Made by a program: the position numbers and the translations under genes
From: an uncultured Pseudomonadota bacterium
GTDB lineage: Bacteria; Babelota; Babeliae; Babelales; JACPOV01
Assembly (NCBI GenBank): GCA_964620245.1
Contig: CAZUJC010000001.1
Span: 436 to 64,435, forward strand
Length of the DNA stretch: 64,000 nucleotides
Direction of reading: 5' to 3'
Shown: one piece after another, positions 20,893-22,841 of the stretch
Layout of the letters: each line of letters starts with the position of its first letter
Numbering within the stretch: position 1 is the stretch's first letter
Notes under the pieces: generated by a model
Seen by the model: the letters and a program-made list of their open reading frames with translations, nothing else
What the model was told of the DNA's origin: nothing
The model's database searches: none

Positions 20893-21162
20893 ATGAACTT
20901 TCTCAGCTGCGTTTTACCAATCGCTGTTGGGTGCATAAGTGGAATAATGTATGGGCTTTTGTTCGTAAGAGCAAAAGCCTTTTTGTTTAGCAACTCATCA
21001 TTTGCACCTCTATTCACTTTCTTGCGCCTACTGGCACTCTCTCTTTTTTTTGTTTATGTATTGCGTACCTCGATTGTTCATTCTATACTCGTATTAATAA
21101 CCTTTTTTACTGCATTTTGGTTGATCATTTTCAAAAAGGCCACGCAGCATGGAAGCTTTTGA
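20893..21162 (+). CDS. Small 3-TM protein resembling AtpI/AtpZ/AtpR-type ATP synthase accessory proteins
   Basis: 89 aa, located immediately before the a-subunit gene and overlapping it by 14 nt. The pattern GCISGIMYGLLFVRAK...FLRLLALSLFFVYVLR recalls AtpR-type proteins (Gly-rich TM1 followed by Arg). The assignment rests on position and pattern only. Confidence 0.4.
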   Translation: MNFLSCVLPIAVGCISGIMYGLLFVRAKAFLFSNSSFAPLFTFLRLLALSLFFVYVLRTSIVHSILVLITFFTAFWLIIFKKATQHGSF

Positions 21163-21889
21163 AGGAGTTGAATCGTCACTCTGGAACCCATTTGGTTGGT
21201 TAGGTATAGATAATAATCTGCTCAAAATTAACGGCTCAACAATCGTAAACACATGGATTGTTCTGCTTTTACTTTTTGCATTTTTGCTTTTTTGTCGTCT
21301 ACTTTTTTTCAAGCAACCGATAGTGCGCTATCTTGTCTCAGCGGGTGTGAAAAATTTTATGGAGATGGTTGTCCACAATATGGGTACTTTCATCTATCCA
21401 CATTTTTTAATGGTTATTTCTCTTTTCTTATTTATTTTAGCCTGCAATTGGGTAATCGTTTTACCCTGGACCAAAGAACCAACATCCGATATAAACACAA
21501 CAATAGCGCTCGCGTTAATTGCTTTTTTTTACAAAGAAGTTGCTTCGATTAGAGCGCGCGGTTGGTGGGGATATTTTGAAGAATTTTTAGAACCATTTTT
21601 TATCATGTTTCCAGTCAATGTCATTGGCCACTTTTCAAAAATAATTTCACTCGCTTTTCGGCTTTTTGGAAACATTTTTGGCAGTTCTATCATCATGGAT
21701 TTGTATACTCATGTAATTTCAATGATTTGGGTTGCTGAAATCGTCGGATTATTTTCAGGCCTCAATTTTCTTATCATTATCTTTTTTGGGCTTTTTGAGG
21801 GACTTATTCAAGCATTCGTATTTGCCATGCTCACGCTAACCTATATTAGTCTGGCAATACAAAAAGATCTTCACGGTGAAGGAATTTAG
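21149..21889 (+). CDS. atpB: F-type ATP synthase Fo subunit a
   Basis: 246 aa, polytopic. Hallmark helices are NVIGHFSKIISLAFRLFGNIFGSSIIM (stator Arg in RLFGN) and GLFEGLIQAFVFAMLTLTYISLA. Confidence 0.88.
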   Translation: MEAFEGVESSLWNPFGWLGIDNNLLKINGSTIVNTWIVLLLLFAFLLFCRLLFFKQPIVRYLVSAGVKNFMEMVVHNMGTFIYPHFLMVISLFLFILACNWVIVLPWTKEPTSDINTTIALALIAFFYKEVASIRARGWWGYFEEFLEPFFIMFPVNVIGHFSKIISLAFRLFGNIFGSSIIMDLYTHVISMIWVAEIVGLFSGLNFLIIIFFGLFEGLIQAFVFAMLTLTYISLAIQKDLHGEGI

Positions 21890-21890
21890 C

Positions 21891-22841
21891 ATGATCGATC
21901 CGTCACTTCTGCACTATTCAAGCATAGCAATCGTCATTGTACTCACAACTATCGGTGCAAGTGTTGGCAGCATACGTGCAAGCAAGGCAGCTCTTGAGGC
22001 AATCAACATAGCACCCTCTTCTAAAAATGAAATAATTCGCGCTTCAGTAATTGGGCTTGCGCTTATTGAAACCGCTCCCATTTTGGGACTCATTTTAATC
22101 TTAATGCTTTTGTTTATTGGTTCTGCAAGACCAACACTTCCTGTTGCATTAGCAGAGTTTGGTATTGCTATTGGTATGGGCATTACCGGATTTGTTGGTG
22201 GGATCATTTCTGCTTATCCTACTCAGGAAACTTGTTTTGCCATTGCTCGCCAGCCTTTTTTTAGTCAAAAATTACTCAACTTGATGGTAATCACGCAATC
22301 AATCATCCAAACACCATTATTGTTTGTATTTATAGTTTCTCTCTTTATTTTTTTTCAATTGACAGCGATTGTTACTATCAAAGCTGGACTCATTTTGATG
22401 GCATCAGGATTATGCATGGCCATTGGATCGATTGGTCCATCAATTGGCCTTGGTAGATTCGCTCGAACCGCGTGTAAAAGTGTTGGCACAAACCGCAAAG
22501 CCTACAGTTATATTCTCCCGTTCACTCTCATGAGTGGCGCATTTATTGAAACACCTCTCATTTTTGCATTTCTCGTTTCACTTATTTTACTTGGAAATGT
22601 ATCAAGCACCGATCCGTTGATTGGTGTACGATCAATTTGTGCAGCATTGTGCATTGGCATTGGAACATTTGCTCCAGGCATCAACTCCAGTAAAACGGCA
22701 AGCTCTGCATGCCAACAAATGGCATTAAATCCGTTGGCCTATTCTTCACTTTCACAAATAAGCATGTTTAGCCAAGGAATCATTGATGCTGCAGCAATTT
22801 ATGCATTGCTCACAGCACTTTTTATTGTATTGCTCAAATAA
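21891..22841 (+). CDS. atpE: Fused four-hairpin Fo c subunit (four tandem c-subunit domains in one polypeptide)
   Basis: A single open frame with no internal stops. It contains four roughly 80-aa hairpin units with Gly-rich first helices and mid-helix-2 residues Glu (22068-22070, LIETAPIL), Gln (22308-22310, SIIQTPLL), Glu (22548-22550, AFIETPLI) and Asp (22785-22787, GIIDAAAIY). An ARQP loop is retained in unit 2. The ATG at 21891 follows GGTGAAGGA; the ORF-track GTG at 21876 overlaps atpB. Confidence 0.8.
   Translation: MIDPSLLHYSSIAIVIVLTTIGASVGSIRASKAALEAINIAPSSKNEIIRASVIGLALIETAPILGLILILMLLFIGSARPTLPVALAEFGIAIGMGITGFVGGIISAYPTQETCFAIARQPFFSQKLLNLMVITQSIIQTPLLFVFIVSLFIFFQLTAIVTIKAGLILMASGLCMAIGSIGPSIGLGRFARTACKSVGTNRKAYSYILPFTLMSGAFIETPLIFAFLVSLILLGNVSSTDPLIGVRSICAALCIGIGTFAPGINSSKTASSACQQMALNPLAYSSLSQISMFSQGIIDAAAIYALLTALFIVLLK

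Follow-up and report, generated by a model that had tools for sequence, protein, structure and literature searches.

A phylum-wide F-type ATP synthase c subunit made of four fused hairpins, one of them lacking its carboxylate, in Dependentiae

The DNA studied here, which we call the window, is a stretch of 64,000 nucleotides (nt) from a Dependentiae (TM6/Babelota) bacterium, a parasite; coordinates are window positions unless another locus is named. Three genes follow one another in it on the forward strand: a small open reading frame (ORF) that is probably AtpI-like, atpB for the a subunit of an F-type ATP synthase (F1Fo), and a gene, here termed c4, that encodes four c-subunit hairpins fused in a single chain (Table 1). 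An initial annotation made from the sequence had called these three ORFs, and all of them are present where it placed them. Its reading of c4 as one uninterrupted frame of four units agrees with the four stretches matched by hidden Markov models (HMMs) along the 316 amino acids (aa) of the product, and the key codons are also as it gave them, namely Glu 60, Gln 140, Glu 220, and Asp 299, spaced 80, 80, and 79 residues apart. Translation from an in-frame GTG at 21876 would make c4 five residues longer, but this start is unlikely because the ATG is preceded by AAGGA at a distance of 8 nt and other gene callers also arrive at the 316-aa form.

The c4 protein matches the Pfam family ATP-synt_C (PF00137) with 80.7 bits against a cut-off of 24. 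The match falls into four stretches on the single protein, as the initial annotation had expected, and the 246-aa product of the neighboring atpB matches ATP-synt_A (PF00119) with an E-value of 1.1e-35. NCBIfam models of F-type c also find four stretches on c4, all under their equivalog cut-offs (best 86.5 versus 116 bits); with 316 aa and four hairpins the protein departs from the standard c subunit, a single hairpin of ~8 kDa. Boundaries between the units were drawn from a local HMM. Aligned with the c subunits of E. coli, I. tartaricus, Bacillus PS3, and the spinach chloroplast, the units stay in register, and the key residue of each falls in the column of E. coli D61. Profile–profile comparison found the four unit families to be mutually homologous and in register (E 8e-10 to 3e-20), with units 3 and 4 as the closest pair and no clean pattern that would group unit 1 with unit 3 and unit 2 with unit 4. 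The units share only ~20% pairwise identity, so the fusion dates far back and did not arise as a recent tandem repeat. An AlphaFold2 model built with 120 homologues shows eight long helices (pLDDT 96, pTM 0.92), in line with the eight transmembrane (TM) helices that the initial annotation had predicted.

A search of 5.8 billion proteins returned at least 288 homologues of c4. The best 120 of these are all 309–331 aa long, and the named ones among them belong to Candidatus Dependentiae or Babeliales. Similarly, a profile search of 1.84 billion cluster representatives gave 233 matches at E<=1e-30, nearly all of 307–329 aa. Gene order was compared in 81 loci, 80 from GTDB species representatives together with the window, with ARQPFF among the search patterns by which they were retrieved. 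In every retrieved locus the a gene is the immediate 5' neighbor of c4; the small ORF is kept in 77/81 and folC in 75/81, at fixed offsets and on the same strand. The usual genes 3' of c4 encode a GT4 glycosyltransferase and a PALP enzyme.

The mid-membrane carboxylate of helix 2 is present in units 1, 3, and 4 (E60, E220, and D299) and absent from unit 2, which carries Q140. Among 192 distinct c4 sequences the pattern of key residues is EQED in 138, EQEE in 38, and DQED in 6, so that the order carboxylate-Gln-carboxylate-carboxylate is found in 182 (95%). Position 220 is Glu in every sequence, position 60 is Glu in 186 and Asp in 6, and position 299 is Asp in 147, Glu in 41, Gly in 3, and Ser in 1. 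At position 140, Gln occurs in 186 sequences, Glu in five, and Met in one. The five Glu forms are scattered in a neighbor-joining tree, as one clade of three and two singletons, and reversion is equally likely as retention of the ancestral state.

Between the window and a relative that is 89% identical (locus L001), the ratio of nonsynonymous to synonymous substitution rates (dN/dS) is 0.073 for c4 and 0.058 for the a subunit; for individual c4 units it is 0.03–0.11, the Gln unit included. Both the fusion and the 3:1 site pattern are phylum-wide and under purifying selection. The loops that are cytoplasmic by analogy with canonical c have conservation values of 0.59–0.85, compared to 0.30–0.42 for the linkers on the opposite, presumably periplasmic, side, and the most conserved segment of the protein is the ARQPFF loop of unit 2 (mean 0.85). 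Stronger conservation of the loops than of the linkers fits a bound partner, such as the foot formed by gamma and epsilon. Antisense ORFs within c4 (21914–22207 and 22508–22684) recur in 74/81 loci; they arise from conservation of the Gly/Ala-rich sense frame and are not evidence of genes.

The protein encoded directly upstream of c4 is a genuine a subunit with its stator Arg, as first annotated: it combines the PF00119 match with the motif FRLFGN and Arg 171. It also matches 13 NCBIfam models of F0F1 subunit A, all under their equivalog cut-offs, and its FRLFGN, QAFVF, and TY motifs are kept in 81/81 loci. For the small ORF, the label AtpI/AtpR-like is a tentative one: its size, its position, and its three TM segments fit AtpI, but the 89-aa window copy has no match in Pfam. 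An alignment of its family shows three hydrophobic segments and an invariant R45. Nine of 44 family members match PF03899 (ATP-synt_I) weakly (best E 1.3e-3), the window copy not being one of them, and a single homologue of the 44 matches AtpR (E 0.03). The small ORF is probably an AtpI-like assembly factor. According to the title of Brandt 2013 (cited in PMC9171764), the Acetobacterium woodii enzyme needs its native AtpI for functional production in E. coli. That requirement matches the presence of an AtpI-like ORF beside c4 and makes it plausible that such a factor would be kept next to a multi-hairpin c.

No gene for b, delta, alpha, gamma, beta, or epsilon had been noticed in the 64 kb, and our searches agree. 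None of the window ORFs of >=120 aa matched ATP-synt_ab, gamma, OSCP, ATP-synt_B, or ATP-synt_DE at E<=0.001, and tblastn with three F1 beta queries (E. coli, PS3, and bovine) gave no match in either the window or 1.5 Mb of c4 loci. Walker-motif regular expressions for alpha and beta were equally without a match in the window and the 80 c4 loci, and two IMG/VR scans with F1 beta gave only unrelated bacterial fragments. Beyond the right end of the window lie mreB and then a glmU-like gene, with no atp gene.

These genes are found elsewhere in the genomes of the phylum. In the COG counts published for Babela massiliensis and TM6SC1 (PMC4378268), AtpD, AtpA, AtpG, AtpC, AtpH, and AtpB are each counted once in both organisms, and AtpF once in Babela and zero times in TM6SC1. 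The same counts give zero in both for the V-type subunits NtpA, NtpB, and NtpI, one each for a membrane H+/Na+-PPase, and three each for ATP/ADP translocases. The Babela locus has the order RpsU-RbfA-PulO-PilE-FolC (gene_640), an 84-aa protein of three TM segments (gene_639), AtpB (261 aa), and "AtpE" (gene_637), the last being a protein of 320 aa with eight predicted TM segments on which the paper makes no comment (PMC4378268). Its sequence has the site pattern E, Q, E, D, with SKQLF at the unit-2 loop. In the same supplement, the Babela atpG is solitary and lies 193 kb from the a/c4 genes.

Using the Babela gamma as a query, we found 665 homologues, several of them with Dependentiae names. 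One gamma gene (P0220, at ~965 kb) and one c4 locus (L062, at ~240 kb) lie on the same contig, contig_7006 of 1,194,016 bp. In all inspected gamma loci atpG is solitary and occupies one slot, flanked on one side by tsaE and yacP, with murA at a greater distance; Babela has the same arrangement (genes 457–459, PMC4378268). The atp operon of Dependentiae is broken into scattered pieces at conserved positions, of which a/c4 is one; F1 and stator genes are missing near a/c4 because the atp genes are scattered, not because they are absent. The presence of alpha and beta is supported by the published table and by the conservation of gamma, which has no role without them. The putative F-type partners of c4 are the adjacent F-type a subunit with its Arg and the gamma encoded on the c4 contig of a relative.

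We compared c4 with the multi-hairpin c subunits known from other systems. No structure in the PDB spans more than two of its four hairpins; the best is c1 of the A. woodii F1Fo (4BEM_J, chain J of 4BEM), followed by V-type proteolipids. A. woodii c1, which covers half of the c4 model, is also the best sequence match (E 1.4e-9) and is likewise F-type and multi-hairpin with one Gln in place of a carboxylate. Hairpin 1 of c1 (AVAETSGIF) aligns with unit 3 of c4 and hairpin 2 (AVAQTTGIY) with unit 4. The neutral site is in a different place, in unit 2 of four in c4 as opposed to hairpin 2 of c1. Furthermore, c1 has two hairpins and one site and is a single copy among nine monomers, encoded in an intact operon with the monomer genes, whereas c4 has four hairpins, three sites, no monomer gene nearby, and atp genes that are scattered. 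Engineered fused c subunits, such as E. coli c2 and c3 and the single-chain c10 of Bacillus PS3, have established that linked hairpins assemble into working rings. They differ from c4 in being artificial, in keeping all sites unless mutated on purpose, and in having no history of natural selection.

The closest natural relatives of c4 came from a Desulfobacterota-type family of multi-hairpin c subunits, with 2410 matches named as Deltaproteobacteria, Desulfobacterales, and Thermodesulfobacteriota. Their lengths cluster at ~324, ~404, and ~485 aa, corresponding to four, five, and six hairpins, and they have Glu in the first hairpin alone and Gln elsewhere (EQQQ, EQQQQ, and EQQQQQ). Their operon is intact and runs atpZ, a small ORF, atpB, the multi-hairpin c, an 82–83-aa monomer c, b', b, delta, alpha, gamma, beta, and epsilon; the small ORF, second in the order, has no Pfam match and is placed like atpI. 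The four-hairpin form is collinear with c4 (hhalign E 5e-45; best pairs unit 1 with hairpin 1, unit 2 with hairpin 2, and unit 4 with hairpin 4) and shares with it a Q/E-T-P motif in the middle hairpins and an F-type a partner. c4 differs in having EQED and not EQQQ, in standing apart from all atp genes but a, and in having no adjoining monomer. In the Babela supplement (PMC4378268), the best BLAST matches of AtpE and AtpB are to Desulfococcus and Desulfatibacillum. Together with the collinear relatives, this suggests that the fusion is probably older than Dependentiae or was acquired. The Desulfobacterota-type family itself has thousands of members in public data.

The V/A-type proteolipids (eukaryotic c/c'/c'', E. 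hirae NtpK, and the archaeal forms) likewise have fused hairpins, lost sites, and a lower ion/ATP ratio, and they superimpose on the c4 model over two hairpins with a TM-score of 0.8. Archaeal c subunits with 1, 2, 3, or 13 hairpins have been described (PMC9171764). That lineage has an a(I) subunit and A/B catalytic subunits, whereas the partner of c4 is an F-type a. Membership of c4 in the V/A type was rejected on this ground, on a score of 22 bits against the cut-off of 127 for NF005124, and on the counts of zero for NtpA, NtpB, and NtpI in the Babela/TM6SC1 table. Similarly, the N-ATPases (atpDCQRBEFAG) were rejected, with scores of 74 against 130.85 for TIGR03322 and 83.7 against 302.1 for TIGR03306 and no such operon at the locus.

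Still longer multi-hairpin chains turned up in passing. In locus L102, a 968-aa c of 13 hairpins contains 96 in-frame UGA codons which, read as Gly, restore its GxGxGxG motifs (code 25, Gracilibacteria/Absconditabacteria-like), and it is followed by atpB, a second c of 448 aa and six hairpins, b, alpha, gamma, beta, and epsilon. A complete F-type ring may thus be encoded as a single polypeptide. Two further proteins of Asgard archaea (P0384 and P0401, under the names Promethearchaeota and Hodarchaeota; 1139–1147 aa) contain ~14 c-type hairpins and resemble the 13-hairpin Methanopyrus case.

Taken together, we think it probable that the trio of genes is the membrane part of a complete F1Fo with scattered genes, that this enzyme works as an ATP-driven pump, and that its ring has a multiple of four hairpins with three sites for every four. 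Each c4 chain would fold into four consecutive hairpins, and copies of it would assemble as the rotor ring, giving a hairpin number of 8, 12, or 16. The carboxylates of hairpins 1, 3, and 4 would take the coupling ion past Arg 171 of the a subunit, while hairpin 2, with its Gln, would pass the arginine empty like the Gln hairpin of A. woodii c1. One turn would then carry three ions per four hairpins, which amounts to 6, 9, or 12 ions for 3 ATP, and a ring of c4 alone would work at 2, 3, or 4 ions per ATP. The most likely direction is hydrolysis, with imported host ATP used to energize the membrane, where a lower ion/ATP ratio would yield a larger ion-motive force per ATP; the logic would be that of the V-ATPase and of the A. 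woodii F/V-hybrid (PMC9171764). Dependentiae genome analyses have described the absence of an electron transport chain and the import of ATP by translocases, and proposed that the ATP synthase runs in reverse (PMC4776705; PMC6561590).

The identity of the coupling ion is a separate matter. The initial annotation had suggested Na+-type sites from Glu-Thr dyads, and Thr or Ser does stand directly after the key residue in most c4 units. At the helix-1 position equivalent to I. tartaricus Q32, unit 1 has Glu or Gln in 122/192 sequences (64%) and Ser in the window copy; units 2 and 4 have Ser there and unit 3 has Leu, and c4 lacks the Thr and Tyr that belong to the complete Na+ motif. With one part of the motif present and the rest missing, a Na+ assignment stays speculative.

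Two other accounts of the locus can be set against a complete, scattered F1Fo. The initial annotation offered the possibility that a and c4 form a module used without F1, an ion channel or the rotor of another machine, in a cell that imports its ATP. The window without any F1 or stator gene, the lack of such genes within 10 kb of c4 in 80 other genomes, and the ATP/ADP translocases of the organism would suit it. Fo without F1 is a proton leak, however, and a costly one for a cell without a respiratory chain. The module account is also contradicted by an F1 gamma that is found phylum-wide and on the same chromosome as c4, by putative F1-facing loops that are the best-conserved parts of c4 outside the membrane, and by alpha, beta, delta, epsilon, and b in the Babela counts and all of these but b in those of TM6SC1 (PMC4378268). 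We consider it very improbable. A complete atp operon elsewhere in the genome had been expected to tell against it as well; other atp genes do lie elsewhere, but scattered and not in one operon. The c4 ORF could also be the product of an error in assembly or annotation, or a pseudogene in decay, with four tandem atpE genes read through; beyond its unusual length nothing speaks for this. The a subunit and the 316-aa c gene recur in identical form in three independent assemblies, Logan SRR29476928, ENA ERZ3430525, and ENA ERZ3430528, and the homologues found by both searches, the divergence of the units, and the dN/dS of 0.07 exclude such an origin for practical purposes.

The more serious alternative concerns the composition of the ring. 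One or a few copies of c4 could be mixed with monomeric c encoded elsewhere, in which case hairpin numbers other than multiples of four would be allowed and only a small fraction of the sites would be lost through the Gln. Such a hybrid ring has precedent, since the nearest relatives of c4 always accompany a monomeric c, and the A. woodii ring consists of nine monomers and one two-hairpin c1 (PMC9171764). A monomer gene could sit anywhere in the genome, because the atp genes of Dependentiae are scattered. On the other hand, the ~1.7 Mb of Dependentiae loci surrounding c4 and atpG contain no c-like ORF of <250 aa. A monomeric c gene is absent from the 10 kb around c4 in the 81 loci and from the vicinity of atpG in the loci fetched there, and the gene 3' of c4 encodes a glycosyltransferase or another unrelated protein in every locus. 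Moreover, three carboxylates are strongly constrained in Dependentiae c4, compared to only one in the monomer-accompanied Desulfobacterota c, as expected if c4 itself must carry ions. The three kept carboxylates and the lack of a monomer gene adjoining c4 lead us to rank a ring of c4 alone first and a hybrid ring, which we regard as rather unlikely, second. That Dependentiae have no monomeric c whatsoever and build the ring from c4 only (with three copies, for example, a ring of 12 hairpins and 9 sites working at 3 ions per ATP) we hold tentatively, at somewhat short of an even chance. The initial annotation's ring of four-hairpin multiples with three of four sites carboxylated has thus become our leading interpretation, with the fusion and the site pattern conserved and the composition of the ring inferred.

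Several points weigh against this interpretation. The composition, size, and stoichiometry of the ring, the direction of operation, and the coupling ion are only inferred, since the enzyme has never been isolated. An enzyme with a lowered ion/ATP ratio may still be able to synthesize ATP (Litty and Muller, 2022, PMC9171764). The four- to six-hairpin relatives in Desulfobacterota always stand directly 5' of the 82–83-aa monomer c, and the Babela count of 2 for COG0636 (c/K subunit; PMC4378268 Additional file 11) could mean a second c gene; it may also reflect two footprints on one 320-aa protein, as the covered part of the Babela gene annotation has one such gene, gene_637. Alpha and beta are taken here from the published COG table (PMC4378268). 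Finally, the invariance of ARQPFF is partly a matter of ascertainment, as the motif served to fetch the loci, and Babela has SKQLF there.

Table 1. Coordinates of the features described in the text (window positions, or positions within the locus named).
Feature	Position	Strand	Remarks
Small ORF, probably AtpI-like	20893-21162	+	89 aa, 3 TM; invariant membrane Arg R45
atpB, F-type a subunit	21149-21889	+	246 aa; PF00119; stator Arg171 codon 21659-21661
c4, four fused F-type c hairpins	21891-22841	+	316 aa, 8 TM helices; PF00137
Hairpin unit 1	21900-22127	+	Glu60 (22068-22070), then Thr61
Hairpin unit 2	22134-22370	+	neutralized, Gln140 (22308-22310); loop ARQPFF = canonical RQP loop
Hairpin unit 3	22374-22607	+	Glu220 (22548-22550), then Thr221, Pro222
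Hairpin unit 4	22611-22835	+	Asp299 (22785-22787)
Antisense ORFs within c4	21914-22207; 22508-22684	-	recurrent by-product of the sense frame
folC-like gene	19465-20889	+	Mur_ligase_C match; ends 3 nt before small ORF
Prepilin peptidase (A24) and type IV pilin-like gene	17307-19155		just 5' of folC
ORF of 1505 aa	700-5217	-	no Pfam match at E<=0.001
LigT-like 2',5' RNA ligase/phosphoesterase gene	32988-33533
RtcB RNA ligase adjoining archease	33566-35491	-
Bacterial RNase P RNA, class A	45321-45666	+	246 bits; overlapped by ORF 45434-46390
Tandem pair of LOG-family genes	50708-52046	-	'possible lysine decarboxylase', SLOG cluster 4
atpG loci	L093 10001-10825; L094 10001-10843; L096 10001-10825; L098 10001-10855; L099 10001-10831		solitary, never beside atpA/atpD
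Group II intron reverse transcriptase and IS605 OrfB	L096 13509-16267		3-5 kb 3' of atpG
Desulfobacterota-type operons	L101 6688-15324; L103 6705-15067; L104 5490-13852
Locus with 968-aa c of 13 hairpins	L102 8001-18862		29% GC

The flanks of the trio had been annotated as folC and a glycosyltransferase, with which the Pfam matches to Mur_ligase_C and GT4 agree. A scan for promoters and terminators around the trio gave the same counts as in shuffled sequence. Further upstream, the prepilin peptidase and pilin-like genes form a PulO/PilE neighborhood common to Babela, so that synteny reaches well past the atp genes. Elsewhere in the window, the genes for RtcB, archease, and the LigT-like protein make up an RNA-repair cluster in a reduced genome. 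The start of the real PASTA-domain gene probably lies downstream of 45434, given the overlap with the RNase P RNA. Several further ORFs of 200–450 aa between 53 and 63 kb are also without a Pfam match, and for the protein at the left end of the window no database record was found.

The number of c hairpins and of ion sites sets the ion/ATP ratio of a rotary enzyme, making it a better synthase or a better pump. To our knowledge, the textbook F-type c is a single hairpin, and the only characterized exception is the single two-hairpin c1 of A. woodii. Our literature search for four- or multi-hairpin F-type c subunits, including the Dependentiae and Desulfobacterota proteins, found no description of them; the Dependentiae papers found mention "an ATP synthase" but never the fused c. 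In databases, c4 and the Desulfobacterota multi-hairpin c appear as plain "subunit c" or "ATP synthase F0 subunit C". Multiplication of hairpins with loss of sites is already known from the V/A-type proteolipids and from A. woodii, and c4 extends this known principle.

What c4 adds is a four-hairpin chain, present across a phylum, in which one site in four is silent, and which constrains a ring built from it to multiples of four hairpins with a 3:4 occupancy of sites. The finding also bears on annotation pipelines and metabolic reconstructions, in which the fused protein is labeled simply "subunit c"; the scattering of the genes may also lead such pipelines to rate the atp module of Dependentiae as incomplete. 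Energy parasites that can be cultivated with their hosts (Babela, Vermiphilus, Chromulinavorax, and Noda2021) provide a natural test of the idea that V-ATPases originated as pumps through duplication and site loss. If the ring does consist of c4 only, Dependentiae would possess an F-type enzyme part-way along the road from synthase to V-type pump, with an origin of its own in bacteria that depend on imported ATP. Many more multi-hairpin F-type rotors would then await description, among them the Desulfobacterota proteins of four to six hairpins and the 13-hairpin chain with UGA read as Gly.

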